Virus record (IMG/VR): IMGVR_UViG_3300032516_000014
Span: 1-64,000 of that record
DNA: 64,000 nucleotides
DNA from: a virus
Reading direction: 5' to 3' (one strand)
A model generated the notes under the pieces. It was not told the DNA's origin. It ran no database searches and worked only from the letters and a program-made list of their open reading frames with translations. Both the position numbers and the translations under genes were made by a program. Shown here piece after piece: positions 10,158-28,529 of the stretch. The first letter of the stretch is position 1; every line of letters begins with the position of its first letter.

Positions 10158-10729
10158 GCGATCAACCCGATGTCCGACCGACGCAGATTGTAACTGTGGA
10201 CGAGCAGGGGCAAACCTTGCATCAGATTGGCGCGCTGCTGGCAATTTGCGGGAGTCTCACGCCTTATGTAATCGAGCAGCACAACGAGAACCCGCACCGC
10301 AAAAAGGAATTGGACGGCGGGGTGCAGTGTTCGGTGGAATCCCTGTTGATCAACACGTGCGACCGGCTGGCTAAGATCGTGGGCGAGGATGCGCGGTGGG
10401 CCTTCGACGAGGTTGCAAACACCGCGAAGAAGCAAAAGTTTCTGGAGAACCTGGAGGCCAACCGGCAGCTTATGCAGTTGCAAGCTGTCTCCGTGGCGGA
10501 GAGTTTGCGGCCCAGTCACCGGGAAGAGCCCGGCATGTTCAAATTGAACGAAACCCTTTACGCGGCCTGCTCTGGTCCTCTGGAGGAGTGGCGATGGCGA
10601 ATGGTCGGCATTGGCCAGTCTCCTTCGGCGGCGCTGCGAGACTATGACCTTCGGCACATGGGGCAGCCGGCTTCCTCCCTCGAAGTGCTGGAAGTCTTGT
10701 TCCCTGAAAACCGCAAACGCAGGAAGTAG
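10154..10729 (+). CDS. Hypothetical protein
   Basis: ATGA-coupled 191-aa ORF in the operon. Confidence 0.7.
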   Translation: MSDQPDVRPTQIVTVDEQGQTLHQIGALLAICGSLTPYVIEQHNENPHRKKELDGGVQCSVESLLINTCDRLAKIVGEDARWAFDEVANTAKKQKFLENLEANRQLMQLQAVSVAESLRPSHREEPGMFKLNETLYAACSGPLEEWRWRMVGIGQSPSAALRDYDLRHMGQPASSLEVLEVLFPENRKRRK

Positions 10730-10731
10730 CT

Positions 10732-11763
10732 ATGAAAAACAAATACCTCGACAAGCAGATTGCAGAAGTAGCGCGCAAAAATCCAAGTTGGGGCCGCGAC
10801 CGGATTGCCAAGGCATTAAATGCGCCGTATAGCACCGTGCGCAACGCACTGCGACGGCTTCAGGCAACGGCGGAAGCCAAGCCCGACAAGCCCTCTGAGT
10901 CTCTTGCGGTGCAAGTCGCGAAGAAAGCTCCCATCGAATTTGGGCGCCTGGGCCTGGAACACGTCGATGCGGGTGACTGGTTTCGCGTTGGCTTGGTGGC
11001 TGATACCCACTTGTGTTGCCAGGAAGAACGCCTTGAAGCGTTGCATTGTCAATACGATCTCTTCAAGTCGGAGGGGATCTCCAGCGTTTTACACGCCGGC
11101 AATTTGGTGGATGGTTGCGTGCCGAAGATCAACGGTGCCTCCGTGATTGTCAGCACCCCCGACGACCAGGCGCAATACGTGATCGACAACTACCCGACGC
11201 GAGCTGGTATTACAACGTATTACATTACCGGAGACGATCACGAGGGTTGGTGGATTAAGCAAGGGCTGAACTGGGGCATCATGCTGCAATACATGGCCAA
11301 GGCCCAAGCACGGGAAGATTTGCATTACATCGGGCACGTCGAAGCTGACGTGGAGATCATGGTCCCGGACACGGTGAAAAAGCCGGTGATCAAGATTCAG
11401 CACCCCGGCGGCGGGAGTTGCTACGCGCGCAGCTACGCGCCCCAACGCACCATCGAGAGTCTTGAAGGCGGGGAGAAGCCGGACGTGCTGGTCCAGGGGC
11501 ACTACCACGTCAACGGGTTTTGGAACGAGCGCAACGTGCACGTGATCACCCTGCCAGGATTCCAGGACCAGACGATCTTTGGTCGAAAGAAGCGTCTGCG
11601 TTTTGAAGTGGGCGGCGCGATCCTTGAATTCAAAGTCAACTCAGCCGGCGCGATCACCCGCTGCCGGTGCGAGTTCAACATGTTCTTCAACCGGGGGTAC
11701 TACAAAGCGTTTTTGCGCTCGGACAGAAAGCTGTTGAAAGGGCATCTGCGACTGACCGTGTGA
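10732..11763 (+). CDS. HTH plus calcineurin-like metallophosphoesterase
   Basis: N-terminal HTH (GRDRIAKALNAPYSTVR); DTH, GNLVDG, GDDHE, HP, GHYH. Confidence 0.85.
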   Translation: MKNKYLDKQIAEVARKNPSWGRDRIAKALNAPYSTVRNALRRLQATAEAKPDKPSESLAVQVAKKAPIEFGRLGLEHVDAGDWFRVGLVADTHLCCQEERLEALHCQYDLFKSEGISSVLHAGNLVDGCVPKINGASVIVSTPDDQAQYVIDNYPTRAGITTYYITGDDHEGWWIKQGLNWGIMLQYMAKAQAREDLHYIGHVEADVEIMVPDTVKKPVIKIQHPGGGSCYARSYAPQRTIESLEGGEKPDVLVQGHYHVNGFWNERNVHVITLPGFQDQTIFGRKKRLRFEVGGAILEFKVNSAGAITRCRCEFNMFFNRGYYKAFLRSDRKLLKGHLRLTV

Positions 11764-12537: not shown

Positions 12538-12566
12538 AAGCTACACCTGCACGCGGAAATTGTCAA
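12538..12566 (-). promoter_or_regulatory. Sigma-70-type promoter for the tRNA-like RNA
   Basis: TTGACA (12566-12561), 17-nt spacer, TAGCTT (12543-12538). Confidence 0.7.
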
Positions 12567-13507
12567 ACAACTATTTTTCGGATCAAGCTCTCGTAAAACG
12601 GAAGAGCGTTGTCTTCCCAGCGCCGGGGGTAGTTGAATTTGAAGAAGTCCCATTCGTAGTGCGTCTCGGGCCAGGTAACCCCAAACTGAAAAGACCGCCA
12701 GGGAAGAGCGAAAAGATCTTCATCAGAGATTGCGGGACGCTGAAAGATTTGCGTGAAGAGGTCCGCGCCGATCCGGGATATGAGCAACATCGTCGGGTGA
12801 GAAATCAACCAAAAGAGTTTCTCCCGTCGCAGGTGTGCCCGGACAAAAGGTTCAATGGGGGTGTCGCACTGGGCGTCTTTCTGCGCCATGCGGTTCATCG
12901 CTTCGGCGTGCCGGGTGGTAAACTGCGGGTCGAATTGCCCCTCGCGGAGGGCGCGCGCGATCTGATCGTGCGTTTGCCCGGCGCGTAGCAGCCGGCGGAC
13001 GTTCTCCAGGTCTTTTGGGATGTCGGTAACGGGAAAGATGCTGCTGAGAGAAGGCGCGTGCATGCGCAAGCGGCGCCCTGGGATCTCTGCGGCTACTTGA
13101 CTGCCGAACTGCTCTAGGAAAGGTTGGTGCGCCGGCCACGCATTCGAGACATAAAAGTCGGTGTGTTGAAAGAACGCATGCACGAGCGGCTGCGCGAGCA
13201 GGGTGGGGATGCGTTCGGGAAACTTCCAGCTCACGATGCCCCAGCAATTCATCTCCGGCGGGTTAGGGTAGAGTTCCTTCCAGTAGCGGAGCAACTGCCG
13301 CCCGTGGCAGGCGGTGTAAAGTCCGAGCGTGGGCCAGTTCGGGCGCCAGGGCTCTGACCACACGATTGAACGTGGATACCATTCGTCCGCCTGTGCGGGG
13401 GCGGTGAAGAATCGTATTTCTTCGGGGGTAGGCGCGCGAGCCAGCAGGGCAACGAAGACCTGGGTCACGCTCTCCGGGGTGGGGTGCTCGAAGTTCCAGA
13501 TGCTCAC
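12563..13507 (-). CDS. WcbI-like polysaccharide biosynthesis protein
   Basis: LYTACHG and KLFWLISHPT resemble the WcbI-family xxNCQ and LFxxxNHP motifs; GTGA-coupled start at 13507. Confidence 0.55.
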   Translation of the reverse strand: MSIWNFEHPTPESVTQVFVALLARAPTPEEIRFFTAPAQADEWYPRSIVWSEPWRPNWPTLGLYTACHGRQLLRYWKELYPNPPEMNCWGIVSWKFPERIPTLLAQPLVHAFFQHTDFYVSNAWPAHQPFLEQFGSQVAAEIPGRRLRMHAPSLSSIFPVTDIPKDLENVRRLLRAGQTHDQIARALREGQFDPQFTTRHAEAMNRMAQKDAQCDTPIEPFVRAHLRREKLFWLISHPTMLLISRIGADLFTQIFQRPAISDEDLFALPWRSFQFGVTWPETHYEWDFFKFNYPRRWEDNALPFYESLIRKIVV

Positions 13508-13809
13508 GGGATCTCTTCCCTCACCGGGACGGTAGCCAGGTTGTATTTGTGCGCTGCCCAAAGCCGGTGGTGCCCGTCGCTCACAATTCGCCTGCCGTGG
13601 CGCCAGGTGATCAGGACTGGCGTGCGCACCCCGTATTGGCGCACCGAGGAGAGAAAGTGCCGCCAGGCTTCCGGGCAGGCTTGAAAGTGGCGCTGCTCGA
13701 TGTAGGCAAAAACTTCCCCCCAGTTACCCTCGTGGCATCCGCGGTAATCCACGGGGGAAGTGGACGCCAGGATCTCTGCAAGTGGGCGGGTTTCAAAAAG
13801 CGTTTGCAC
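13504..13809 (-). CDS. ParB/Srx-like N-terminal domain protein
   Basis: SVRQYGVRTPVLI…VSDGHHRLWAA…VPV. Confidence 0.85.
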   Translation of the reverse strand: MQTLFETRPLAEILASTSPVDYRGCHEGNWGEVFAYIEQRHFQACPEAWRHFLSSVRQYGVRTPVLITWRHGRRIVSDGHHRLWAAHKYNLATVPVREEIP

Positions 13810-14748: not shown

Positions 14749-17700
14749 TCATTTCGGGCGAATCTCTGCCTTCTCGGCGGATTGCGTAGCGGGTTTCACG
14801 GCGCCGGCTAAACGCTGACGCCGTTCCCACTCGTCCACCAGCACGCGATGCCAGTTTTTATCAACCCGGCGAAACCGATCATCGGTCACTAGACGCTGTA
14901 ACTCGGCGTCGGGCATCCCCTGCGACATCATCTTCTCATTCTGGCTCGCGCGCTTTGGCATAAAATTCGCCGAGTTAATATCGCCCAGGTCGAGGCCCAA
15001 GTCAAGGGGCTGTTCTGTCGGCGCGGCCCGGATCTCCAGCCGGCCAGTTTCCTCGTTTCGTTGCAGCTTTTTCAACGGCTCCTCGAAAGACGCCAGCTCT
15101 TCGCCGGCCCCCCGAGTCCACCCGCGCTCGCCCCACAGCTTCTTTTCCTGAAACCACATCAGGGCTTGCAGGTCGTCCGGCTGCATGTGCAACTCTTTTG
15201 CCGCCTTTGCAAATGCTTCCTGCGCGAACAAGAAGGCGGGATCGGTAATGCCGCCCTCGCTGCGGGGCAGCAATCGCCACGGAGATTTCGTCAGCCCGTC
15301 CCAGCCCAGGCGTTTCATCGTCCGGGAAGCCCACACGTCGATGGTCGCGCCGTGATCGGTGCCCGCCAGGTTTTTCGCAAACTGCTGCGTCTTGAGCCCC
15401 TGCACTTCCTCGGCCCAGGTGCCGGACAGCACCCGCAAAACCTGATCCGAGTTCTGGCCAAATTGTTTTTCGTTCTCGCGAACTAAGGAGAGCTCGCGGC
15501 TTTCGATCCACCACTCCTTCAGCGCAGCGTCGGAGGGCACGATGGTTGAGTTGTTCTCGCGCTGCCATTGCCGCAACAACCCGCCCGTTTCCAGCTTGGC
15601 ATAAGCCTTCTTGTATGAAGCGATCGCGTCGTCGAACTTGCCTTCCTTCCAGAGGTTATACGCTTCGAGAGCATACTTGAAGTTTTGGGCCACGTCAGTT
15701 CTCGCGCTGGTGGCCGCGAGCAACTGGGCGAAAGAAGTAACCTCGGCGTCAGTCTTGAAGTGCTCTTTGATCAGCCGGACGGTTTCTTGATACCAGGACT
15801 TGCCGGCGAGCACGTCTGGGTCAGCAATTGCGCGCGCTTCTTCGGCAATCTTCTTGGCGAATGCAGTCGTCTGGGCATCTTGACGCGCTGACTCTCCGCG
15901 GATTCCTTTGGCAGCTTGCCGGGACAAAGGCGAATCGTCGAACGTGTATTTCACCATGTTCACGAGGGGCTTGCCTTTGGCGTTGATAATGTATTCGCCT
16001 TCGGGGGTTCGCTTGAACAGGACGGGCACTGACTCCGGGTGGAATTCAACACGTTCCTGCGTTACGCGCCGAGCGTAATCCCGAGCAAAGGCTTGCGGGT
16101 CCGTCTCCGTTACCTCGGCCCCGAACTCTGCTTGCTCCGCGTCGCCTTTCTTCGGCTTGGGCATGAACGCGGCTCGTTGCGCGCCAGTGTCAGAAATGAG
16201 GGGGAGGTGATCCAACTTGTCGATGCCCTCATACTCCACCAGGTTTGCGGCGCCTCCATCGACAATCTTCATTTTGCCGTTGAGGATGTTGACCCGCATG
16301 TGGTCGATGTCGTCGAGGTTCTCGCGCACCAACTGGAAAATCTTGTCCTTCGCATCCGTGGTCCAGGCGTTCTCGGAAGCCTCGATCGCTAGCGTTCCGG
16401 TGCGAGGTTCGTAGCGAACGCGAATGAAGCCTTCTCGAATGGCCTTCTCTCGTTCAGCAATGTCGGGCACGTTTGCAAAGTCCGTGCCGTATTCCGCGTT
16501 GAGCTTAGCGCTATTACGGGCCAGCCAGTCCTCGTGCATGCTGCCCTGGATGGAGCGGAACTTTCCGTCGGGGTCGATCCACCCGGAGGTTTCCAGCTTC
16601 TCAGGTTCCTCCCGCCGGCCGCGCTTAGCCATCATTGCTGCTTCGGGCGGTTTGGGCAGCTCGGCTGGGATCGCGTTCTCTCCCTTCAACAACGCTTGCA
16701 CCGCCTTCGCAATCTGCGCGGGAGAGGTCAGAACGGTTTTCCCAGTGCCGCCCACCGGGATTGAGTGTCCGTAAGGGTCCTTCTCCGTGGGCACCGTGTC
16801 ATAAATCGCCTGCTGCTGGTTGAACTTCCCAAAAGCGATCGTGTTGTCCCGATGCTTCTGATCAGGCAGCGCATTCACGTCGATGCTTGTCTGCGTCGGG
16901 TCGTCCATCTTGAACACCCCCATAGCCGTCCCCGGAATTGCAAGCACGTCCTCGTATCGGTCGGCTACTTTTTGCACCGCCGCCGGAGTGAGTGCCTTCG
17001 TCAGCACGTTCTCGCTGGCCACGGTGACGATGTCCACTTTCTGATCTTTTCGATCCCACACCTTGCCGGCGCCGGTGAACGTCTGCCCAGAGCTGGTGCC
17101 CTCGCGAACCTTTGCAAGTTCGTCGGCGACTTCCTTCGATTTCTCAAACGCTTGCGGCATGAAGGCGCCGTGAAACTGCGCAACCCTTGACGAAGTGCGA
17201 CTGGGCAAGTGGCCGGCGCGATAAAACTCTTTGATGTCGTTGATAATTACCGTTGGATTCGTGACGGCCGGATAAACCCGGCTATCACGTGCGTAACCGT
17301 TTTGATCAACTAAATCAACAGCCACCTCCCCCCACTCATTTTTCAAACTCGGATCAGCGAAGAAACTTTCCAGCTTGCGATATTGTGCCTCAGAAGGTTC
17401 TTTGTTTGAGGAGATCTCCGCACCGGGTAACTCCGGCATGATTCGGATCGCGCCGGAATTGACAAACGCTGTCAGCCCGGATGTTTCACCGGAGTAACCC
17501 AATTTCCCAGCACCGGCTTTCTTCGATGCCGCCGCTATGAACGGGGTAAGCATGTTTTCTCCCACCGCTTCAGCAATCGAAGAGTGGTCGATCGTGCGTT
17601 TGTAATCTCCAGGCGGGGCATCGGGACCTTTGCCGGTGAAATCAAGCTGCGTGCCGTCGGGTAGTAGATAGCCGGTCTCCTTCCACTTCTCCGTGTCTCC

Positions 17701-20700
17701 GTATTCCCGCCAGGCGGCGCGATGCAAGCGTCGAGCGTATGTAGTCAGTAACTTGTCTTCGGACTCCTTGCGCTTGGCCATGAACGCACCTTCGGCCTTG
17801 CCGGTGGGTTCATCAACAATTTTCCATCCGAGACGATTAAGAGCGCTCTCGAAAACATCAGTCCCGACAGGAAGTGTTCCGCGGGGAACGCCGGGTAGAG
17901 GCTCCCACACAGTCACAACTCTTGTCAGAGCTCCAGTAGCAGGAGAATACCGGGGCTTGCCAACCGATGCCCGCACAAGTTGGTTGTCGGGACCCTGCAA
18001 CAAAACGCTCACGTCTCCGGGTGTCGATTTCGGTATGTTCTTAAAAGACCAGCCGGATTTGTTTCTCCAAGCAGAGCGTTCCATTACTTCTGCTCCCGTT
18101 TCTTTTTGCCCGGGGATGTCCTCGGGTAAAATAGGCAGATCAGCCATTCCAGCGACTCGACTTTTCGTCATGAACGCACCTTCGGCCTTGCCGGGCGTCT
18201 TGTCAAGTTGCTGCGAGGCCCAGTCGTAGATCTCGCGCGCGAAATTCTCGTGGATCGCCGGGTCGGTGTGGAACGACTTCGCGAGCACGTTCTCATCCAC
18301 GTCGGCGGCAGAGGTCGTCTTCAACTCCTTCGACAACTCGCTGCCCTCATACACGGCCAGGTTGTAGATGTTCGCGTGGCTGATCACGTCTGAATTCTTC
18401 CGGAGGAAGTCCATCGTGTGCGCATAGGTCGCCGCGGTCTCCCCCGGCAACCCGATCACGATGTTCGGAATGAACGCGATGCCCAGCCGGCGCATCTGCT
18501 CGGTGGCGGCGTCGATCAACTTCTCGTTCGCCGGTTTGCGCTGACCTTTCAGCACGCTGTCGTTGTAGGACTCGACGCCCAGCTCGATGAACTTGATGCC
18601 GCTCTTGCGCAGGAATTCGTCGCTGAAGGACTTCATTTGCGCCGCCGTCGTCTGAATCACGAAGCCCCCGAAGTCGGGATTCGCAGCCTTCATCTTGGCA
18701 TAGAGCTCGGGCAGTCGCAAGTAACTGTCGTGATGGCCGAAGGTTTTGTCGTTGAGATAAGCCAGCGGCGCATTCAGATCGCCGAAGGCGTCCACTTGCT
18801 GAGTCACTACCTCGGGCGGCGTCCCAACGACCTTTTTCGTGGTCGTGCAGAACTTGCACGCGTGCCGGCACCCCTGCGAGAGATCCAGCCGAGGAACAAC
18901 GGAAGAACCCCGATACAAGCGGTAGTCAAAGCCGCGTTTGTATTCCAGCCCAAGAGATCGAACGTATTCATCGATGGATTCATACCGGGTTGCGCGAGGG
19001 TTGCGCGAGGTGATCTCGCTGGTGTCCGTGTAGCCGCCCAGGACCGTGTGGCCTGGATTTGCGTCCGCGAGCTCCGCGACCTTCGACTTGTTCACGTCGA
19101 GCACCGAGAAGGCCACGTCCTGGTAGCCCGCTGTGGCGAGAAAGCTCTTGGCTTCCGCCATGTCGCGCACCACGTAGAGATCCGCCGCCTCGCCAAGCGC
19201 GTGTGTCAACACTGCGTGCCACTGCGGGACTTCCCAGAAGTCGGGCAGTCGAGCATACCCCTTGCGCTGCGCATACAGCTTGTCGTAATATGCGGATGCA
19301 GCAACATCCAAGGGATTTGGAGGTTTGTTCACGTCGGTTGGGGCATACATCATGTCCTTCGTGAACTGCATCAGCAACACCCGGTTGGAGTTGTCCGACG
19401 CTCCCGACTGGCGAACCCATAGGTTGCCCTTGCCCCGCTCGACCGCGTGCCCATACGTATCCGCAGGCTCCGTAATCTCGCTGCCGCGCGCCTTGGGCAT
19501 GAACGCCGCCGGGGTGAGGCCGGCGGATTCCCCCGGAAGAGCGGGCCGGTCGGGGTTTGTCTCAGAGCTTCCGACCATGCCATCAGGAATGTCGATCGGT
19601 CGCTGCGGAGTCGGCCCGAGTGGTTCAGTTGTCGCAGGGGCATCTTCTACCGTCCAACCCTTCTTGTTTAGCGAGGGCTCGTATGTGGTGCTACGCGCGG
19701 TGAAAGCACCGGGGAAAGATTCCTTGGGTGTGATCTGTCGCACCATACCCAGGCCCAGCACGGAGGCATCCTGGTCCCCGTCGTGCGTGGCTGCGACTCG
19801 TTCCCCGTTCGGCCCCACCAGGGTTACGTCACGCTTCGGCATGAAGCCGGCGCGAGCCAGGTCCGTCGAAGGCATGCGCAGCAAAGACTCAGGCCGCGGC
19901 GTGAGACCGCGGATCTGCTCCAGACTGAGCTCTTGCGTGACTTCGTGCAACTGCCCTTTCGCGTCGAAGCCGGCGTCCACCAGCTCCGCCCGCAGGGGGT
20001 TGGTCTCCATGACCGGCACGTCTTCCGGGACGATGATGCCCTTCTTGGCAAGAGCTTCCTTCTTGAAGACCGGCGCGCCTTTCGCGGGGGTAAGCGGGCG
20101 CCCATGCGCCTCTGCAAGTATCTGTGCCGCCATTCCCGCGGGCATCGGCATACCCGAAGGTCCGGTTCGCTGGGCAACTCGGCCAGTTTTCGGCGGAGCG
20201 AGGCCCATCGAGGCGTTGATGAATTGCGCTTTCCGCGGATCAAGAAGGGTCGGCTTCCAGTTTGGATCTGGCGCCGGGATTACCCCTTGCCAGCCTGCGG
20301 GTGGGTGCATCGCCGTGCCGTCGCCGCCGTAGCCGTGAGCGTGATTGCGCAGGTAAGAGGTTACATCAGCCGCAAAGTCCCTAAATCCAGGCTCCGTGAA
20401 ATGCCCGTCCGACCCTGTTTCATACGGCACAAGACCTGGTGCCTTCTTGCGAGCGGAAAACTCTCCAATCCGTAGCGCATTCGCGAGCAGGATGTCGAGG
20501 TTCATCGACAGCAGGTTTACGTTGTCTCCGCGAACCTTAACGCCATAGAATATCGCTTGATGTCGGAGCGTCCGCAAGAGTTCAACCGGATAGGTCCCGT
20601 CCGCCTTGCGCTGCAATTCGACTTCAAGACGCTCCGCCCTGCGGATGTATCTTGCCACGTTTTCACCAACCGTTTCGGGCCGGGCATAGTCGAGCTCCAC

Positions 20701-23175
20701 TGGAGTAACATCGCCATGTTCCCGTTGCAGCAATTCCCAAACCTGGTCCATCACTGCCTTGGCGTTGTCGTCGTATTTCGGGGAAGCTTGCGTGCGGCGG
20801 CGCGCTTCGGAAAGCCCTTCGATGTCTTTCGCCTGGGCGACGAATTCTTTGGTGCCTACGCCTGGCGGGCGCATGAGCGAAGCCTGCGCGCCTGTCGTTG
20901 CCGCTCGAATCGGCACCGCTCCAGGCACCCCGGGGGCTGGACGAAGAACGGGCTGGATCTCCAAAGCTTTCAACCTCTCCGCCAGCACGGGAGTTTCCAG
21001 AGAACGAAAAACAGGTTCGGCAAGCTGTCGCCCTGTAAAAGAGGGCGTCAAACCGCCGTGGCGGCCGGTGATAAAAGTTTTCGGATCGAGAGTTGGGCGA
21101 ACTATGCCTGCCTTTTCAAATAGCGAGCCCAGAGCTGTAAACGCGGAGTTTAGCACTCCGGGTGGCGCGCCGTTCAAAGACCGCCCACGTAGAATGGCGC
21201 CCAGGGTCTCCGCAGAAGCTTCGTCCAGAATGTTGCCGGTCGCACCTTTGCCCCCGTAAAGCTCTTCAAGCGCGGGGCGGATCGGGTTGACGTGCGTAGC
21301 CAGATCTGCCCGATACTTTTCCCAGGCAGGCCGATCTGTCTCCCGAAGCAGCCAGTCGAGCACGTGCCCGGGCTCATGATAAACTGCGGCGTCCCCACCA
21401 TTCAACAACATGACTTTCCGTGGTCCCCGGCCTTCCGTCGGATCAAGCCGGACGGTGAAGCCACGCTGCCCCCGGGCTTCAGCAATCAGTTGCTCCGGCG
21501 TGAAGTCCGGGTGTTCGCGTTGAACTTCAGCCAACACCCGCGGATCTTGGGCAAACTGGTCCACAGGCAGCAAGTAAAGCTCAGCCTTGCCGCGGAAGTA
21601 TTCCCGCACCCGATTGATCAAACCTGCTGTGGGGGAATCGTTCCTGCGCAACGCTTCAATCGCCTGCGTGTGGGCCTGATCGAGGTTGGGTTCGATGTTG
21701 AAAGCCGGTGAACGCACCGGGTCACGCGCGACTTCCTGATACCGCGCCTGGTAAGCCCTTGCGACGCCTTCGTGCGCAGCAGAAACGGCTTGACGTGTTG
21801 CTCCCCCGAAGCCACCAAAGAAAGCCATCGTGCCGATGAGCTGCCCCGCCTCCATGTCAGTATGCGCCCCCAGGGCAAACGGCGCGCTCGCAAGACCGCC
21901 TTCGATTGCGCCAGCCACCGCCGGGGTTGCAAGTTTTGCGATCGGCAACGCGTTCTCAGCCAGGGCTGCTCCGCCGCGCTTCAAACCCCACTCCGTCCCC
22001 TTTGTCACAGCATGCGCAACTTTGCCGGCGACCCAGCCCCCCGGACCCGCCGTGACTGCCCCGCCGAGCGGAGCTTCTTTTCCGACCCAACCCACCACAG
22101 GAGCCGCCGCTTTTTCTGCGGCCCATCCCGCACCTTTGAAAAGCTTCGCCAGGGAAAATTCTGTTGCGATGCCGATGGTCTTTCCTCCAAGACCGATCAC
22201 CTCGAACAGCTTGCCTCCGCCCATCGGAATGAACGTCATCGGCCCGTTGAAGAGCGACTTGTCTGCGATCGCTTCTGGATCGAGGGTAACACCGGCGGCC
22301 TGCAATCGCTCCGGGGTAACGCCTGCCAAGGAAGATACGACCCCACCTCCCTGCGCAACGTTTGTGTGCCGACGAAAACTTTCTGCGTCGGCGTCGAGGT
22401 CCTCACGCAACCGCAGACGGCGAGCCTCGGGATTCTCCTCCACCTTCGCCCGTTGGCCAGTCACCTCACCGGGAACACCGGGCACCCCCGGCACCGGGGC
22501 CGCTCGATACACCCGGCCCGCCGTCCGGGAAACAAGAGTAGCCAGATCCCGAGCTTGCAGAATTCCTTCGTCGATTGACGCTACGCTTTCGCCCGCAATC
22601 TTCGCCGCTGCCGCCAGCGTTGAATCCCGCACTTCCATGTTGTTTTCCAACATGTCTTTCGCGAAGGCCCAGGCTAGTTTCGCTTCACCCGCGGCGGCCC
22701 CCGCGACCGCGCGCACCCCACTCTTGCCCGTTTCCCACAAGCCTCGGCCGATCGCTTTTGCGGTGCGCCCCACTTCCCACGGCCGCGCGTCTTGTGCATC
22801 GTAAATCTCGTAAAGCTTCTCGCGCAAATCAGGCGGCAAGTCTTTTCCGTATTGGCCCAGCATCGCCACTGGTGAAAACGCGTCATCCGCCGCTAGTTCT
22901 TGCGGCGTGCGCTCCATCAGTTTCCCGATGTCTGGATTTTGAGGAGCCTGGGAAAACTCCGCAGTGCTTGGTCCTATTGAAGGGATATGCACCGCCCTTG
23001 GGGCAGCCTGAAACTCGTCAAGGGTAGGCGCAGCCGGTGTCACCGGAGCGGCGGCTTGAAACTCGGCGAGATCCGGCACTGGCGCAGCGGCGTTGAATTC
23101 TTCCACCGAAGGCGGGAGAAAAATTCCCGAAGCCGTAGCCTTTTGAATCGGCGACTCTTTGAGTTCGACAGGCAT
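14749..23175 (-). CDS. Giant (2808 aa) polyvalent protein, probable internal virion/ejection protein; HExxH peptidase motif, radical SAM and HhH-like modules separated by xFMPK linkers
   Basis: Follows the GNAT and two ejection-like genes; HEPGH at 21364-21378; CRHACKFC at 18847-18870; eight FMPK-like motifs. Confidence 0.85.
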   Translation of the reverse strand: MPVELKESPIQKATASGIFLPPSVEEFNAAAPVPDLAEFQAAAPVTPAAPTLDEFQAAPRAVHIPSIGPSTAEFSQAPQNPDIGKLMERTPQELAADDAFSPVAMLGQYGKDLPPDLREKLYEIYDAQDARPWEVGRTAKAIGRGLWETGKSGVRAVAGAAAGEAKLAWAFAKDMLENNMEVRDSTLAAAAKIAGESVASIDEGILQARDLATLVSRTAGRVYRAAPVPGVPGVPGEVTGQRAKVEENPEARRLRLREDLDADAESFRRHTNVAQGGGVVSSLAGVTPERLQAAGVTLDPEAIADKSLFNGPMTFIPMGGGKLFEVIGLGGKTIGIATEFSLAKLFKGAGWAAEKAAAPVVGWVGKEAPLGGAVTAGPGGWVAGKVAHAVTKGTEWGLKRGGAALAENALPIAKLATPAVAGAIEGGLASAPFALGAHTDMEAGQLIGTMAFFGGFGGATRQAVSAAHEGVARAYQARYQEVARDPVRSPAFNIEPNLDQAHTQAIEALRRNDSPTAGLINRVREYFRGKAELYLLPVDQFAQDPRVLAEVQREHPDFTPEQLIAEARGQRGFTVRLDPTEGRGPRKVMLLNGGDAAVYHEPGHVLDWLLRETDRPAWEKYRADLATHVNPIRPALEELYGGKGATGNILDEASAETLGAILRGRSLNGAPPGVLNSAFTALGSLFEKAGIVRPTLDPKTFITGRHGGLTPSFTGRQLAEPVFRSLETPVLAERLKALEIQPVLRPAPGVPGAVPIRAATTGAQASLMRPPGVGTKEFVAQAKDIEGLSEARRRTQASPKYDDNAKAVMDQVWELLQREHGDVTPVELDYARPETVGENVARYIRRAERLEVELQRKADGTYPVELLRTLRHQAIFYGVKVRGDNVNLLSMNLDILLANALRIGEFSARKKAPGLVPYETGSDGHFTEPGFRDFAADVTSYLRNHAHGYGGDGTAMHPPAGWQGVIPAPDPNWKPTLLDPRKAQFINASMGLAPPKTGRVAQRTGPSGMPMPAGMAAQILAEAHGRPLTPAKGAPVFKKEALAKKGIIVPEDVPVMETNPLRAELVDAGFDAKGQLHEVTQELSLEQIRGLTPRPESLLRMPSTDLARAGFMPKRDVTLVGPNGERVAATHDGDQDASVLGLGMVRQITPKESFPGAFTARSTTYEPSLNKKGWTVEDAPATTEPLGPTPQRPIDIPDGMVGSSETNPDRPALPGESAGLTPAAFMPKARGSEITEPADTYGHAVERGKGNLWVRQSGASDNSNRVLLMQFTKDMMYAPTDVNKPPNPLDVAASAYYDKLYAQRKGYARLPDFWEVPQWHAVLTHALGEAADLYVVRDMAEAKSFLATAGYQDVAFSVLDVNKSKVAELADANPGHTVLGGYTDTSEITSRNPRATRYESIDEYVRSLGLEYKRGFDYRLYRGSSVVPRLDLSQGCRHACKFCTTTKKVVGTPPEVVTQQVDAFGDLNAPLAYLNDKTFGHHDSYLRLPELYAKMKAANPDFGGFVIQTTAAQMKSFSDEFLRKSGIKFIELGVESYNDSVLKGQRKPANEKLIDAATEQMRRLGIAFIPNIVIGLPGETAATYAHTMDFLRKNSDVISHANIYNLAVYEGSELSKELKTTSAADVDENVLAKSFHTDPAIHENFAREIYDWASQQLDKTPGKAEGAFMTKSRVAGMADLPILPEDIPGQKETGAEVMERSAWRNKSGWSFKNIPKSTPGDVSVLLQGPDNQLVRASVGKPRYSPATGALTRVVTVWEPLPGVPRGTLPVGTDVFESALNRLGWKIVDEPTGKAEGAFMAKRKESEDKLLTTYARRLHRAAWREYGDTEKWKETGYLLPDGTQLDFTGKGPDAPPGDYKRTIDHSSIAEAVGENMLTPFIAAASKKAGAGKLGYSGETSGLTAFVNSGAIRIMPELPGAEISSNKEPSEAQYRKLESFFADPSLKNEWGEVAVDLVDQNGYARDSRVYPAVTNPTVIINDIKEFYRAGHLPSRTSSRVAQFHGAFMPQAFEKSKEVADELAKVREGTSSGQTFTGAGKVWDRKDQKVDIVTVASENVLTKALTPAAVQKVADRYEDVLAIPGTAMGVFKMDDPTQTSIDVNALPDQKHRDNTIAFGKFNQQQAIYDTVPTEKDPYGHSIPVGGTGKTVLTSPAQIAKAVQALLKGENAIPAELPKPPEAAMMAKRGRREEPEKLETSGWIDPDGKFRSIQGSMHEDWLARNSAKLNAEYGTDFANVPDIAEREKAIREGFIRVRYEPRTGTLAIEASENAWTTDAKDKIFQLVRENLDDIDHMRVNILNGKMKIVDGGAANLVEYEGIDKLDHLPLISDTGAQRAAFMPKPKKGDAEQAEFGAEVTETDPQAFARDYARRVTQERVEFHPESVPVLFKRTPEGEYIINAKGKPLVNMVKYTFDDSPLSRQAAKGIRGESARQDAQTTAFAKKIAEEARAIADPDVLAGKSWYQETVRLIKEHFKTDAEVTSFAQLLAATSARTDVAQNFKYALEAYNLWKEGKFDDAIASYKKAYAKLETGGLLRQWQRENNSTIVPSDAALKEWWIESRELSLVRENEKQFGQNSDQVLRVLSGTWAEEVQGLKTQQFAKNLAGTDHGATIDVWASRTMKRLGWDGLTKSPWRLLPRSEGGITDPAFLFAQEAFAKAAKELHMQPDDLQALMWFQEKKLWGERGWTRGAGEELASFEEPLKKLQRNEETGRLEIRAAPTEQPLDLGLDLGDINSANFMPKRASQNEKMMSQGMPDAELQRLVTDDRFRRVDKNWHRVLVDEWERRQRLAGAVKPATQSAEKAEIRPK
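17779..18194. repeat. Exact 26-bp direct repeat CATGAACGCACCTTCGGCCTTGCCGG at 17779-17804 and 18169-18194
   Basis: Read directly; 390 bp apart, in frame; encodes GKAEGAFM on the minus strand. Confidence 0.95.
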
Positions 23176-23176
23176 C

Positions 23177-24559
23177 TTAAAAAGTGGGTCGAATAATCAT
23201 CGGCGCTGGGGGCGCATTCTGAATAGGCGCCGGCCCGGCATAAGGAATCACTTTGGTCGGGTCAGCAGGATCAAGCATCCACCACCCTGCGCGGCCTGGG
23301 ATCTGCCGGACATCCGCGCCCGTCGGCGGAGCTCCAGCCGGCGCAGCGGGCGTCTCCGATAGAGAAGTCGCAACGCTGCCTTTTTTGAGGTATTCCTTCA
23401 ACCAACCCTGATACTTGTCGTTGGTGTAGTGCGCAACCTCTGCGTTCATTGCCCCGTATTGCAATCCGGGATTGCTCTCCAGCCGGGATTGCGCGGTCTT
23501 CAAAGCAGGCCCCGCACTTGCGAGTCCAATGTCACGAATGCGCCGGGCAACTCCAAGCACGTCGGTTCGTTGTGCAGGGGACAACTTCTTTTCCAAGCCG
23601 AATGCCTGATTGTAATACTGCTTCAACTTACCAGAAATGCTATTGATCTCTTCGGGATCGACCCCCTGCATCCGGCCCGCCATCTTCGCGGCCCACATCG
23701 CACTGAGATCTTTCGAGAGGCCCTGGTCCCCGACCACGGAAGCGTCACCTTCTTTGTCCGGCACAGCCGCGTCGTGCACGTTGGCTTTCTGCACGTATTG
23801 AAAGATGCTCTTGAACTTGTCGTCGAGCACTTTGAATTCTTTGACTTCGTCTGCACTCTCAACGCTTGCGGCCACTTTGTCAGCTTGTTCCAGCGCAAAC
23901 TTTCCCGCCTCCGGGTGCATGCGATAATAAAGGGCCATCGACGCATTGGCATTCTGAGACGGGTCCGACAATCCCATCGCCGCCAAGCCTCGAATAAACT
24001 CCCGCTTACCCAGCGTAGTCATGCCCGACTTGTTCAGGAAGTCGTCCCACTGTTCAACTGTCTTTGGCAGCGGGGCCTGATACCCCTTCACGCCGTAAAA
24101 CGATTGCTTCGTCTCCAGCTCGGCTTTCTTTTGCACCAGTTCTTCAGGCGTCAAATTCGCCAGGGGCAGCGCTTGATTCAACGCCGTTGCCGTGTTGACT
24201 TGGCTTTGAGCGATGCCTGTGTTCAACGCCTGGCGCTGGGCTTCCGTTGCCAAGGGCTGCAACTGGATTTGTGACGTAAGCTGGGCATTCTCCGCTTGCA
24301 ATTTCTTGAACGCAGTGGCGCGTTCCGGGGCGGAAAGCTCGTTGATGTCTGCGACACGCTTATTCGCTTCAGCCGCCGCTTGCTTGCGCTGCGCCGGCTT
24401 CACCTGGATCTCGTCCAGCAAGTTGCTCATGTCGGCCACGCCTTTGGCGTGTGCCTGCATGGACGCCTGCATGACCTGGTTCAGCGCCGACATCGGATCG
24501 CGCGGCACAGCCAACTCTTCGAGGTTGGGCTGCAATGGAACATACACGTTGGCTGCCAT
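23177..24559 (-). CDS. Probable internal virion (ejection) protein
   Basis: Ala/Gln-rich helical 460-aa ORF directly upstream of the giant protein. Confidence 0.6.
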   Translation of the reverse strand: MAANVYVPLQPNLEELAVPRDPMSALNQVMQASMQAHAKGVADMSNLLDEIQVKPAQRKQAAAEANKRVADINELSAPERATAFKKLQAENAQLTSQIQLQPLATEAQRQALNTGIAQSQVNTATALNQALPLANLTPEELVQKKAELETKQSFYGVKGYQAPLPKTVEQWDDFLNKSGMTTLGKREFIRGLAAMGLSDPSQNANASMALYYRMHPEAGKFALEQADKVAASVESADEVKEFKVLDDKFKSIFQYVQKANVHDAAVPDKEGDASVVGDQGLSKDLSAMWAAKMAGRMQGVDPEEINSISGKLKQYYNQAFGLEKKLSPAQRTDVLGVARRIRDIGLASAGPALKTAQSRLESNPGLQYGAMNAEVAHYTNDKYQGWLKEYLKKGSVATSLSETPAAPAGAPPTGADVRQIPGRAGWWMLDPADPTKVIPYAGPAPIQNAPPAPMIIRPTF

Positions 24560-24562
24560 AAA

Positions 24563-25528
24563 TTACTGTCCTGGATTGCTGAATTGCGACTTGTAATAAG
24601 TCAGGTCCGAATTGCTTAGGTTTGGCGTCCCTCCCGAGCCACCGCCGCCCATCCCGCCTATCGCGTTCCCCAGGAAATTCGTCGCTGCTCCGATTTCCTT
24701 GCCCGTGGTTTCGGCGTTCATGAGTTTGTTGCCCGCCGCGGCGTTTGCAAGATCCATCATCTGCTGATTCTTCATCTGAATCTGCTTCAGATGCAAGTTG
24801 ACCACGTCGCCGCCGGCCAACCCGATGCCCGGCATCGCGGTTTCTCCGAGCCTAGAGGCCAGCCCTGCCCGGTCAGCCCGCGCATTCTGAACCTGCACGA
24901 GGGATGAAGTCAGATTGCCGAGAATCTGCGCTCGGGCGGAGTCCATGTTCGTCACCAGGCCCAGCTCGCTCTGCGCTGTCGCCTGGCGCTGCTGCTTCAA
25001 AGCTTCGCCCTGCACGCCGATCAATTCCCGCATGCGCACTCCGACCGGTCCCTCTGCCGTCGGCCGAACACCACTGCCCGTCGAAAGTCCCGCGCGCACA
25101 AGCTCCGCCTCGTATTCCGGGGACAACGTCGCGCCCAGGTCCAGGTTCTCCTTGGCCTTGTCCAGCAACAAGTCCCGAACTGCATTGCGCTTTGTATCCG
25201 CCGGCACGTTCTCCTTGACCATCTGCGCCAGCACCGAGTCTTCTTGATTCTTGTGCAGGTCGTCCTGCAAGATGTCTGCCAAAGCACTGGCGCCCGTCTC
25301 CCGGAGCTGGGCCAGCAACGGATCGTATTTCTTCTGCGCCGCAATGCTCCCTTTGAAGCGATCGAGGTCCGCCTGTTTCGCTTCTGCTTTTGCCGTGCCG
25401 GTGTCAAGAGAGGTCTGTTTCTCGACCGATTGCTTGATGATCTTGTAGGCCTTGTTTTGGGCATGCCTGTTCATCTCGGACGACACTATCGTCCCCACCA
25501 TGCCGATCATACTTCCTGCCATGCTCAT
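24563..25528 (-). CDS. Probable DNA-transfer/pilot ejection protein
   Basis: Gly-rich hydrophobic N-terminus, helical core and Gly-rich C-terminus; position after the GNAT gene. Confidence 0.6.
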   Translation of the reverse strand: MSMAGSMIGMVGTIVSSEMNRHAQNKAYKIIKQSVEKQTSLDTGTAKAEAKQADLDRFKGSIAAQKKYDPLLAQLRETGASALADILQDDLHKNQEDSVLAQMVKENVPADTKRNAVRDLLLDKAKENLDLGATLSPEYEAELVRAGLSTGSGVRPTAEGPVGVRMRELIGVQGEALKQQRQATAQSELGLVTNMDSARAQILGNLTSSLVQVQNARADRAGLASRLGETAMPGIGLAGGDVVNLHLKQIQMKNQQMMDLANAAAGNKLMNAETTGKEIGAATNFLGNAIGGMGGGGSGGTPNLSNSDLTYYKSQFSNPGQ

Positions 25529-25968
25529 AAGGCTCCTGTCTGTTTTAGAAAGGTCAGTTCCGTCATCCGAAACCCCTTCTTCAAGTAAATCTGGGCGACG
25601 CTGCGGCCCGGCTGATTCATCATGCAGCCGGCGCTAATCAACTTCACGTCCCGACGCGCAGCTTCCGTAAACAACGCGTTCAACAACTCGGCGCCGTGCC
25701 CCCGGTATTTGGGCCGGACATACCAGTGCACCACCGTCAGGATTTGCTGGCCCGTCATGATCTCCCGAGTCGCGGTCGCGCACAGCATGCCCTCGACAAA
25801 ATCAATTTCCAGCAAGAACACTGCGGCGGCCAAGGAATCAAATGCCGCAGCCCACCACGAGCAGTAGTGCGCTGCGCTAAACTCCCCGGGGAAGCCTCCT
25901 TCGGGAAAAGCCTCCCCCGCCAGCACCGCCATCTGCGGTATGTCCGCCGTTGTCGCGCGTCTGATCAC
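25525..25968 (-). CDS. GNAT-family acetyltransferase-fold protein (podovirus virion assembly type)
   Basis: MIRRATTADIP, WYVRPKYRGHG, YLKKGF. Confidence 0.85.
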   Translation of the reverse strand: MIRRATTADIPQMAVLAGEAFPEGGFPGEFSAAHYCSWWAAAFDSLAAAVFLLEIDFVEGMLCATATREIMTGQQILTVVHWYVRPKYRGHGAELLNALFTEAARRDVKLISAGCMMNQPGRSVAQIYLKKGFRMTELTFLKQTGAL

Positions 25969-26003
25969 ACCTTTATATTGCCTCTTTCCACGATTTAGTC
26001 CAG

Positions 26004-27209
26004 TTACAACAACGTAATCTGAACCGCCATTAGGAGTGCCTCACCAGCCGGCCCGAGGTTATCAAGCGCCGACAGATTCGCAAGATGATAGTATTGAGTA
26101 ATCGCCTGCACTTCGTAAGTGGTATCATCTACGGCGTGCAGCACTCCCGACGCCGATACCAATCCGATTCCGGCGTTATCCGGGACGGCACTCCCACAAG
26201 GAAACCCAGCCGATCCAACTACATCCCCCGAATCCGATCCGTTTTCTACCGCACGGCTGTTCGACACGTCGTAAAGCCGCAACCGCGGCTGCGCAAACGA
26301 GGACCCCGCAAAAATCTGTATCCGGTACTCTCCCGCCGGCAACGTAAACTGATCTCCAGAAAAATCAAGACTCAACGCATCCGGGTCAATGATCGAAGTA
26401 AGCGGCACTCGCGTCCAAATATCGGAAACAGCCCAGCTAGTTAGTTGCCAAGGAGGCCCGGCTTGAGTGAACGCAATGGTCGCCACTTTACGAGTCTGCG
26501 CCGGCACGACGATCGCAGGCATGAAGTTTATCACCTGCCAGCCTGTGCCGTCGAAAGCCAATTGATAAATGCGATTCGGTTGCAGTTCGTTCGCCCCTAC
26601 CGCCACCGTCGCGTCGCGGCGAATCGGGTAGGCCGGCCCGCCGTTCAGCGCCAGGGTGGCGCCGGCTGCGTTCACGTATTGAAACTTCGCCAGCAGCCCG
26701 CAACTGGTATTCACGCCGTCCCCCAGCGCCGGTGTCGCAATCGAGCCGTCGGAATTCCGCAAGGCCGCGGTGTAAGTCGTGGCCCCCGCCGCGAACACGT
26801 AAAAACACGAATTCCAGTGCAGCTTCGGCTGAGTCACGATTCGGTCGGCAAGACATTCGGTGCGCCAAACGACTCCATCCCGCAGCTTCCCGTTGCTGTC
26901 AAAGACCAAAGCGACCAGCGCATTAAGGGCGTCCACCTTGCGGCCCGTGGGGGTGTCGGAAACGTCAAGCGGAACGTAACGCCGCGTCACGGAGTCCCAC
27001 ACCCGCCACGACAGTCCGCCTTTAAGCCAGGGGCCGACGTTCTGCCGAGGCTCCACGTCTCCTACCACAAACGTCAGGAACCCGAAGGGGGACACAATCC
27101 GAATCTGTTGCAGCCACTTGTCCGCAAACTTCTGCGGCGTCCCCGCGAAGGTCGGATCGAGGGGGGCCATCTCGATTAACAACTGCGAAGGAATCGGGAT
27201 TGAACTCAT
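26004..27209 (-). CDS. Tail fibre/appendage protein, paralog 2
   Basis: Shares VWRTECLADRIVTQPKLHWNSCFYV with 27206-28381; start MSSIPIP at 27209. Confidence 0.7.
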   Translation of the reverse strand: MSSIPIPSQLLIEMAPLDPTFAGTPQKFADKWLQQIRIVSPFGFLTFVVGDVEPRQNVGPWLKGGLSWRVWDSVTRRYVPLDVSDTPTGRKVDALNALVALVFDSNGKLRDGVVWRTECLADRIVTQPKLHWNSCFYVFAAGATTYTAALRNSDGSIATPALGDGVNTSCGLLAKFQYVNAAGATLALNGGPAYPIRRDATVAVGANELQPNRIYQLAFDGTGWQVINFMPAIVVPAQTRKVATIAFTQAGPPWQLTSWAVSDIWTRVPLTSIIDPDALSLDFSGDQFTLPAGEYRIQIFAGSSFAQPRLRLYDVSNSRAVENGSDSGDVVGSAGFPCGSAVPDNAGIGLVSASGVLHAVDDTTYEVQAITQYYHLANLSALDNLGPAGEALLMAVQITLL

Positions 27210-28381
27210 AGCTTGGTTATCTGAAGCCGGGCAAGAGAACCGACCCCGGTGTCTGAACACGTGTCGGTCAAGTATCTCGCACCGAGCGCGATCATCTGCA
27301 ACGAAATCGTGGTAGTGCCCGCCAATCGCGCCTGGCCAATCAAGAAAATCTCATCCCAGGTAGCACCCCAAACAAAAGACGTGTTACTCAAACAAGTCGG
27401 GTTTCCTCCACCATCGACAACTTCGGTGCCCGCCGTTACGTTATAGAGTCGCAGCCGGGCCGCGCCGTTTGCCGCGCCTGCACACTTCGCATGCGCAAAG
27501 ATTTCGTATGAACCTGCTGGCAGGGTAATCTGATACCCGGCAAAACCAGTCGTCATCGAGTTAGGATCGCACAGATCCGTCAGAGGAACGTCAGACCAGG
27601 CCGCGGGAATCAATTGCTGAAACAAGTTCCAAGGAACGCTCGTAACCTTGAAATACGCCAGGGCGCTCGGGTGCACCACGGATGCGCCTCCCGTCGCTGG
27701 GTCGAATCCCATGATCTGCCAGGAGGTGCCGTCAAACACGATCTGGTAAATCCGGCCCACCTCGATGTTGCCCCCCACAAGCGGAGTGCCGGTGCCCACC
27801 ACGATCGGATATGCGGTGCCCCCGTTCAGAGAGAAGGTCGAGGCGCCGGTGTTAGCGTTCTGAAACTTCACGAAGATGGCCAAGCTATCCGTGATGCCGT
27901 CTCCAAAAGTCGGTGTTGCAACACTTCCATCCGAGTTCAACAAGTTGGCGGAGTAGCCATTCACTCCAGTTGCCAGCACGTAGAAACACGAGTTCCAATG
28001 CAGCTTCGGCTGGGTCACGATTCGGTCAGCAAGGCACTCGGTTCGCCAGACGGTCCCGTCGCGCAACCGCCCGTTGTTGTCAAACACCGCATTGAAAAGC
28101 GCGGTGAGCCGGTCCACCTCTGCCGCTAGAGTGCTGTCAGAAATGTCGAGGGGAACGTAAGTCTTCAGCACCTCGTCCCAAACCCACCACGCGGTGCCGT
28201 TCTTGAGCCAGGGACCGGCGTTGAAAAGCGGCTGCGTGTCGCCTACGACGAAGGTAACAATTCCCGACGGGGAAGAGATCCGCACCCGCTGAATCAAATG
28301 CGTCGCGAAATCTTGCAGGTTGCCCTTGAACGCTGGATCGAGAGGGGCCAGCTCGACCACCAATTGAGTTGGATTCACCAT
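27206..28381 (-). CDS. Tail fibre/appendage protein, paralog 1
   Basis: ANTGASTFSLNG…YQIVFDGTSWQ fibre-type module; located in the tail region. Confidence 0.7.
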   Translation of the reverse strand: MVNPTQLVVELAPLDPAFKGNLQDFATHLIQRVRISSPSGIVTFVVGDTQPLFNAGPWLKNGTAWWVWDEVLKTYVPLDISDSTLAAEVDRLTALFNAVFDNNGRLRDGTVWRTECLADRIVTQPKLHWNSCFYVLATGVNGYSANLLNSDGSVATPTFGDGITDSLAIFVKFQNANTGASTFSLNGGTAYPIVVGTGTPLVGGNIEVGRIYQIVFDGTSWQIMGFDPATGGASVVHPSALAYFKVTSVPWNLFQQLIPAAWSDVPLTDLCDPNSMTTGFAGYQITLPAGSYEIFAHAKCAGAANGAARLRLYNVTAGTEVVDGGGNPTCLSNTSFVWGATWDEIFLIGQARLAGTTTISLQMIALGARYLTDTCSDTGVGSLARLQITKL

Positions 28382-28385
28382 AATC

Positions 28386-28529
28386 TTACAGGGTCATGAA
28401 CACCGTTGCGCCCGAGCCGGACACCGGGGCCGACGAGGGCAGCCCGGTCGGTTCGCCGAAGAACGCAGGGCTCTCGTAATCGTCCGGGATTTCCCGGCGG
28501 GTGATCGGTCTGGAAACTTCGTCGTTCAT
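28386..28529 (-). CDS. Small hypothetical protein (MNDEVSRPITRRE…)
   Basis: ATGA-coupled to the upstream stop. Confidence 0.5.
   Translation of the reverse strand: MNDEVSRPITRREIPDDYESPAFFGEPTGLPSSAPVSGSGATVFMTL

Follow-up and report, generated by a model that had tools for sequence, protein, structure and literature searches.

How can one very long phage protein change its set of modules and remain in frame? The question is raised by a giant open reading frame (ORF) in IMG/VR virus record IMGVR_UViG_3300032516_000014. The virus genome is complete (76,395 bp, with direct terminal repeats), and the window, meaning the whole stretch of DNA analyzed here, comprises positions 1 to 64,000 of the record, that is, 64 kb of the 76.4-kb genome. 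The giant ORF lies on the minus strand and is divided by eight copies of a short linker peptide; one of its modules, referred to here as M3, is bracketed by an exact 26-bp direct repeat at two of these linkers. Near-identical phages either lack M3, carry it, or carry it together with a further module at the same joint, and these observations support the gain and loss of whole modules at linker-coding DNA. We consider it fairly probable that the repeat marks the junctions left when M3, together with the linker tail at its C terminus, was recently gained in frame at one linker of a polyvalent protein.

The 26-mer, CATGAACGCACCTTCGGCCTTGCCGG, occurs exactly at positions 17779-17804 and 18169-18194, a spacing of 390 nucleotides (nt), or 130 codons. 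No third copy with three or fewer mismatches was found in the window or in the whole 76,395-bp genome, and the number of copies expected by chance, estimated from 100 shuffles of the window, was 0. On the gene strand, the repeat reads CCGGCAAGGCCGAAGGTGCGTTCATG and encodes (P/T)-G-K-A-E-G-A-F-M, in frame, at two of the eight linkers. The two copies also agree at all synonymous positions; given the peptide and the codon usage of the phage, the probability that all eight codons coincide is approximately 1.4e-3. The bracketing pair of linkers shares 27 of 30 nt, and any other pair in the ORF shares at most 21 of 30. The sequence-only reading from which this analysis started had described this repeat, its spacing and its identical synonymous positions, and all three hold, with two copies only in the whole genome. 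The repeat further contains a Shine-Dalgarno (SD)-like GAAGGTG, 5 nt before the linker ATG (window 17779-17793 and 18169-18183); no SD-like sequence is present upstream of the ATG in the other six linkers.

A counterpart without M3 was found on IMG/VR contig IMGVR_UViG_3300032164_002163, a single contig that holds loci L001, L008, and L009 (throughout, L0xx denotes loci on related contigs and P00xx protein records). L001 is 98.4% identical to the window at the nucleotide level over ~14 kb, and exactly 390 nt are absent from it, with the breakpoints inside the repeat and the radical SAM module joined directly to module M4. L001 tracks the left flank through CCGGCAA, and identity is back at TTCATG and the right flank; these short sequences are microhomologies (7 nt on the left and 6 nt on the right) common to both alleles. 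Between them lies a 13-nt core, ACCCGCAGGGGAG in L001 and GGCCGAAGGTGCG in both window copies, a difference at 5 of 13 nt, and the linker peptide of the empty allele is GKPAGEFM, compared with GKAEGAFM in the window. Across window positions 16912-18732, the 390-nt indel and the five core bases are the only differences from L001, while substitutions elsewhere are strongly patchy. An identical empty junction was present in another sample (L010, Ga0315287_10004763) on more diverged flanks, which match the window at 608/619 and 686/700 positions, compared with 617/619 and 700/700 for L001. Protein records P0013 and P0018 (2675 amino acids [aa]) also represent the empty allele. In IMG/VR, the linker sequence of the empty site was found on the L001 contig only, and a junction search among shorter proteins returned no further alleles. 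Relatives lacking exactly this segment, which the sequence-only reading had proposed to look for, therefore exist in L001, L010, and P0013/P0018. The same reading had expected recombination between the two copies to excise the module cleanly. This expectation was not borne out: the natural empty allele reads GKPAGEFM and is neither the excision product nor the exact preinsertion site.

The proteins in the 90%-identity clusters holding the window's protein were compared. Five proteins (P0001, P0003, P0004, P0008, and P0010) carry M3 only, as in the window (allele 1). Five others (P0002, P0005, P0006, P0007, and P0009), with lengths of 2936 or 2989 aa, carry an extra 128-aa module, M3b, between M3 and M4 (allele 2). 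M3b is bounded by the repeated peptide GAFMAKRKE, and the M3-only junction matches exactly what clean gain or loss at this peptide repeat predicts. The DNA collections searched for allele 2 returned empty-allele contigs only. Three architectures, with zero, one, or two modules, thus occur at one joint in near-identical phages, which is the variation in payload that had been anticipated from the sequence, and they recur in independent ENA, JGI, and Logan assemblies. All four combinations of module state and flanking single-nucleotide polymorphisms exist, and alleles 1 and 2 were both found on each of two N-terminal haplotypes, showing that the alleles recombine in the population. These haplotypes (P0001-type and P0003-type) are very diverged over aa 1 to ~735 (window ~20970-23175). 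The C-terminal 2000 aa are nearly identical across both, the motif HEPGH is present in both, and the switch point between them does not lie at a linker.

The base composition of M3 sets it apart from its surroundings. Its G+C content (GC) is 0.538 and its G+C content at third codon positions (GC3) is 0.485, compared with 0.602 and 0.801 for the radical SAM module, in agreement with the earlier impression that the enclosed DNA is more AT-rich. No 130-codon window in the giant ORF has a lower GC3 (mean, 0.685; standard deviation, 0.081), and the M3 value falls within the lowest 1.3% of 130-codon windows across the window's non-overlapping ORFs; codon usage is therefore not uniform among the modules. 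M4 also has a low GC3 (0.594). An exhaustive HMMER search of 1.84e9 representative proteins with M3 returned only its own cluster and two marginal matches to repetitive proteins, and among these proteins M3 is nearly an orphan. In the AlphaFold2 model, a core (module residues 50-122) was predicted confidently (predicted local distance difference test [pLDDT], ~85), and the first 48 residues and linker residues 123-130 were predicted to be disordered, with a linker pLDDT of <50. Foldseek found no match to the M3 model in the PDB at an E value of ≤0.001. By sequence, the core is distantly paralogous to that of M1, with which it shares 28% identity over 68 aa, and to an M1-like module of L003, a distant relative described below.

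What kind of protein is diversified in this way? The linker motif [AGN][FM]M[PTA][KQ] occurs eight times in the giant ORF, with its Met at aa 1112, 1226, 1669, 1799, 2006, 2182, 2338, and 2739, and was absent from every other six-frame ORF of at least 100 aa in the window. All eight copies are module borders, splitting the C-terminal 1700 aa into units of 114, 443 (radical SAM), 130 (M3), 207, 176, 156, 401 (DUF7178), and 69 aa. The six linkers outside the bracketing pair vary widely upstream of FM. Domain matches were obtained to radical SAM (PF04055) and DUF7178 (PF23802), and at least five further modules are present, of which M4 and M6 form one family with the variable M3b, sharing the mark G-W/Y-x-x-P-D-G. 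A tblastn comparison of the whole giant ORF with INPHARED phages gave no match.

The giant ORF forms the distal end of a tail/structural operon on the minus strand, where the ORFs upstream of it have tail, tail-fibre, and internal-virion-protein PHROG matches; the plus strand encodes a DNA polymerase, a DUF2800/PHROG-69 exonuclease, a RuvC-like resolvase, and a helicase. The genomic context is that of a phage. With many domains in one polypeptide and a setting among late/virion genes, the giant ORF product is, as judged from its sequence, a polyvalent protein in the sense of Iyer, Burroughs, Anand, de Souza, and Aravind (2017; PMC5512222), and is probably virion cargo. By analogy with the family, it would be packaged and delivered into the host with the virion. 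Its N-terminal region contains the HExxH-type motif HEPGH, whose position is kept in the distant homologues P0014-P0017 (as HEVGH or HEPGH); P0014 also contains an ART-PolyVal domain. The linker peptide is a probable site of proteolytic cutting, perhaps by the HExxH domain of the same protein. A prohead-protease site common to other virion proteins was also considered and was ruled out for the 64-kb window, the motif being confined to the giant ORF.

A second instance of a linker-bracketed module was found in the distant relative L003 (IMGVR_UViG_3300043409_002246), whose radical SAM module is 54% identical to that of the window and in which the order M1-radical SAM...M6-DUF7178 is the same. 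L003 has a linker variant, xFM/A[ED]K, at eight or nine places. Its 42-nt direct repeat (positions 10508-10549 and 11165-11206, 657 nt apart) is identical at 40 of 42 positions, with both differences synonymous, spans two adjacent xFM/AEK linkers, and brackets a 219-aa module. The bracketed module, which is paralogous to the module upstream of it (40% identity), is lower in GC3 than the modules beside it. A search for relatives of L003 returned only L003 itself. The radical SAM tail of L003, LGKPAAFM, is closer to GKPAGEFM of the empty allele than to GKAEGAFM, and L003 as an outgroup therefore weakly suggests an ancestral state for the empty junction and a derived one for the M3-type tail.

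These features can be brought together in a mechanism. In this reading, the giant ORF is a series of unrelated modules connected through a short peptide, [AG]-[FM]-M followed by [PTA]-[KQ]. The DNA coding for this peptide is the only sequence common to otherwise unrelated modules and to the polyproteins of related phages, and therefore provides in-frame homology islands of 20-40 nt. Recombination or template switching at these islands, with co-infecting relatives or between copies within replicating concatemers, could add, remove, or swap whole modules, and the frame would be kept and a linker regenerated on each side of the module. In the present case, M3 would have been added between the radical SAM module and M4, such that both junction linkers now carry the M3-type tail. 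No site-specific recombinase is involved, as a search of the complete 76.4-kb genome, in which the positive controls worked, found neither tyrosine nor serine recombinases (PF00589 and PF00239). That modules were gained rather than lost here, and that recombination was the route, is what we infer from the whole of the evidence.

Several points weigh against this reading. The core of the empty allele differs at 5/13 nt from both window copies. The observed structure is therefore out of reach of one single crossover into an L001-type site and calls for a second event or for a donor whose flanking linkers were identical. The clean-excision or preinsertion junction (radical SAM...GKAEGAFM/AKRKE) was not found, and the 26-mer is absent from IMG/VR. 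No donor of M3 was found in the IMG/VR locus search, and the ESM Atlas gave nothing above 0.87. The repeat around M3b is known at the peptide level only, and the polarity argument consists of a 4-residue match to a 54%-identical outgroup. With respect to the supposed protease, the HExxH region had no Pfam match (E value of ≤1, including the MPTase model) and no PDB sequence match, its AlphaFold2 model, built from a 3-sequence alignment, was unusable (pLDDT, 41.6), and cleavage at the linkers is argued from knowledge of the family.

The simplest route, a one-linker circle entering an L001-type site by a single crossover, was rejected on logic: it would leave one resident and one cassette core. 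Two ways around this difficulty may be envisaged. The donor may already have held M3 between identical linkers, as a tandem or concatemeric donor or following an earlier insertion elsewhere, and with such a donor the block could have been transferred by crossovers that took place only within the 7-nt and 6-nt microhomologies. Alternatively, the true parental site may have carried GKAEGAFM, in a phage not yet sampled. The earlier proposal of an in-frame integration at the linker thus stands insofar as whole modules do vary at linkers; a single crossover into the empty site does not stand, and the mechanism and direction are argued indirectly.

The direction could in principle be reversed. If radical SAM-M3-M4 were the ancestral order, the L001/L010 lineage would have dropped M3 and had its linker core replaced in the same event, for example via a third phage carrying radical SAM-GKPAGEFM-M4. 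An indel alone gives no direction, the mosaic patches indicate frequent exchange with diverged relatives, and the distant paralogue M1 in the same protein means that M3 is not alien to the lineage. Nevertheless, we regard loss as unlikely, since M3 is the GC3 minimum of the ORF, the GKPA tail of the empty allele matches the outgroup L003, and the empty allele occurs with two diverged flank haplotypes, whereas every M3 junction is the same. Moreover, recombination between the repeats would leave GKAEGAFM, unlike the empty junction that is observed. The repeat itself could have arisen by homogenization, neighboring linkers having been made identical by gene conversion or by selection on the cleavage site, with the module polymorphism arising separately. 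L003 lends this some weight, as its bracketed module is only a 40%-identical paralogue of its neighbor, yet their tails are 95% identical in DNA, which looks like conversion or tail replacement. However, selection on the peptide leaves the identical synonymous sites in the window unexplained, and the wide differences among the other six linkers upstream of FM indicate that no extended site is required. The sister-phage indel also has its breakpoints within the repeat, and the ~0.9 kb on either side of the isolated 5-nt patch carries no substitution. Homogenization therefore appears quite improbable to us.

Two further explanations were considered. The repeat could act at the nucleotide level as an internal ribosome-binding site and start codon, allowing M3 and M4 to be translated separately; GAAGGTG, the 5-nt spacing, and the ATG in the repeat fit such a signal, and M-T-K and M-A-K are typical protein starts. 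Initiation would, however, leave unexplained why the residue before the Met (F or M) is conserved both here and in L003, and the other six linkers are without an SD-like sequence, making an internal start highly improbable. Finally, the module-less contigs could be products of de Bruijn graph collapse over the 26-bp repeat, whose length exceeds that of small assembly k-mers. Such a collapse is excluded by the linker core of the empty allele, which matches neither copy and is the same in two samples although their flanks differ; the recurrence of three architectures in independent assemblies also makes an artefact scarcely credible. The preferred reading, a recent gain of M3 at the linker, is the one carried forward below.

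Comparison with known systems places this locus among the polyvalent proteins of phages and conjugative elements. In the account of Iyer et al. (PMC5512222), an embedded metallopeptidase is proposed to cut the polyvalent chain into units, and the possibility of cassette-like recombinational variability, similar to that of polymorphic toxins, is raised. The present protein resembles those described in its giant size and many domains, in being encoded next to virion genes, in an HExxH motif of candidate metallopeptidase type, and in having a distant homologue that contains ART-PolyVal. In contrast to that account, it shows a recurring linker peptide, a radical SAM module (0 occurrences in the paper), and module indels at the population level, and its HExxH region, unlike the proteins described, has no match to the Pfam MPTase model.

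Toxin modules of CdiA-CT/Rhs proteins are delimited by VENN-type motifs, and recombination at the motif has been proposed to reload the protein (Poole et al., 2011; PMC3150448). As in CdiA/Rhs, a short conserved peptide-coding sequence stands at the module borders here and homology blocks run from motif to motif: the indel breakpoints lie in the linker repeat, the M3b borders lie at GAFMAKRKE, and a divergent patch in the radical SAM module ends at a linker. CdiA/Rhs systems, however, swap only the C-terminal toxin and its immunity gene, from silent downstream orphan cassettes, whereas internal modules are added in series in the giant ORF and no orphan store or immunity gene was seen. Outside the giant ORF, the motif was absent from six-frame ORFs of at least 100 aa, and the 26-mer occurs only twice in the genome; no cognate immunity gene was seen either. 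Conserved motifs also guide recombination in the tail-fibre adhesins of T-even phages, where glycine-rich motifs of gp38 mediate shuffling (Trojet et al., 2011, PMC3157838, citing Tetart 1996 and 1998). The adhesin motifs belong to the structural core of a single domain of which segments are replaced, whereas the linkers here are predicted to be disordered and to lie between modules, and whole domains are inserted or deleted. By analogy, VENN-to-VENN exchange in CdiA/Rhs and motif recombination in T-even adhesins would be the closest counterparts of the module turnover seen here.

Like integron gene cassettes, the modules appear to be added serially at a defined short site, giving variation in payload; unlike integrons, no integrase of either family is present in the genome, and what is added is an in-frame protein module rather than a promoterless gene carrying an attC site. 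The internal proteins of T-even phages are injected anti-defence cargo with a conserved short leader that is cut by a phage protease, and their loci are polymorphic between close relatives. They are encoded by separate genes, and their motif is a prohead-protease site shared with other head proteins. The giant ORF resembles them in being a probable cargo locus that varies between close relatives and differs from them in forming one chain, with a motif confined to that chain. The present case contributes a natural polymorphism with three states, resolved to the nucleotide in phages that are almost identical, and with it an exact DNA repeat.

Coordinates of the features discussed are given in the table below.

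Features of the giant ORF and its variable joint (positions in the 64,000-nt window)
Feature	Position	Strand	Description
Giant ORF, 2808 aa	14749..23175	(-)	N-terminal ~1112 aa with HEPGH, 7 modules, and 69-aa tail, with 8 linkers between
HEPGH motif, aa 600-604	21364..21378	(-)	Candidate zinc-metallopeptidase active site
Span of 8 linker Met codons	14959..19842	(-)	19840-42, 19498-500, 18169-71, 17779-81, 17158-60, 16630-32, 16162-64, 14959-61
Module M1, aa 1113-1226	19498..19839	(-)	Distant paralogue of M3
Module M2, aa 1227-1669	18169..19497	(-)	Radical SAM enzyme module (PF04055), upstream of cassette
Gene-proximal repeat copy	18169..18194	(-)	(P)GKAEGAFM, C-terminal tail of radical SAM module and its linker
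Module M3, aa 1670-1799, 130 aa	17779..18168	(-)	Variable cassette; GC3 0.485
M3 folded core, module residues ~50-122	17803..18021	(-)	Predicted small beta-rich domain
Gene-distal repeat copy	17779..17804	(-)	(T)GKAEGAFM, M3's own C-terminal tail and linker
13-nt linker core	17785..17797, repeated 18175-18187	(-)	GGCCGAAGGTGCG on gene strand
Module M4, aa 1800-2006	17158..17778	(-)	Downstream of cassette

Further differences from the sister phage L001 were observed around the locus. A divergent patch with 27 substitutions lies inside the radical SAM module (window 18733-19497); it stops exactly at the first base after the ATG of the linker between M1 and the radical SAM module, and the next 456 nt are free of substitutions. 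Small in-frame indels are also present, with 9 nt at 20696-20704, in the N-terminal region, absent from L001 and 15 nt extra in L001 near 13406. Upstream of the giant ORF, between window 24406-28602 and L001:1-3098, the tail-protein ORFs are largely unrelated or only 78% identical in DNA, so that the structural operon has undergone mosaic replacement at a second place. A 332-aa ORF at 12563-13561 on the minus strand, shortly downstream of the giant gene region, has a WcbI-like polysaccharide-biosynthesis domain (PF18588; E value, 1.6e-7).

Beyond the gain of M3 itself, a broader role for the linker may tentatively be considered, which we find possible but rather doubtful. The linker could serve two purposes, as a peptide being a cut site that frees the cargo and as DNA being a portable in-frame recombination site, which together would make up an integrase-free cassette system for injected payload. 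Modules would then turn over faster than the 2% divergence of the genomes, and both junctions would bear the M3-type tail because each cassette brings its own linker tail.

The role supposed for polyvalent phage proteins is to bring anti-defence enzymes into the host, and how their sets of domains diversify has so far only been guessed. Here, phages that are nearly identical and come from related samples have zero, one, or two modules at one linker, with nucleotide-resolved breakpoints for one of the modules. The process of module turnover thereby becomes directly testable, and a natural design rule for loading cargo into phage virions of laboratory strains is suggested.

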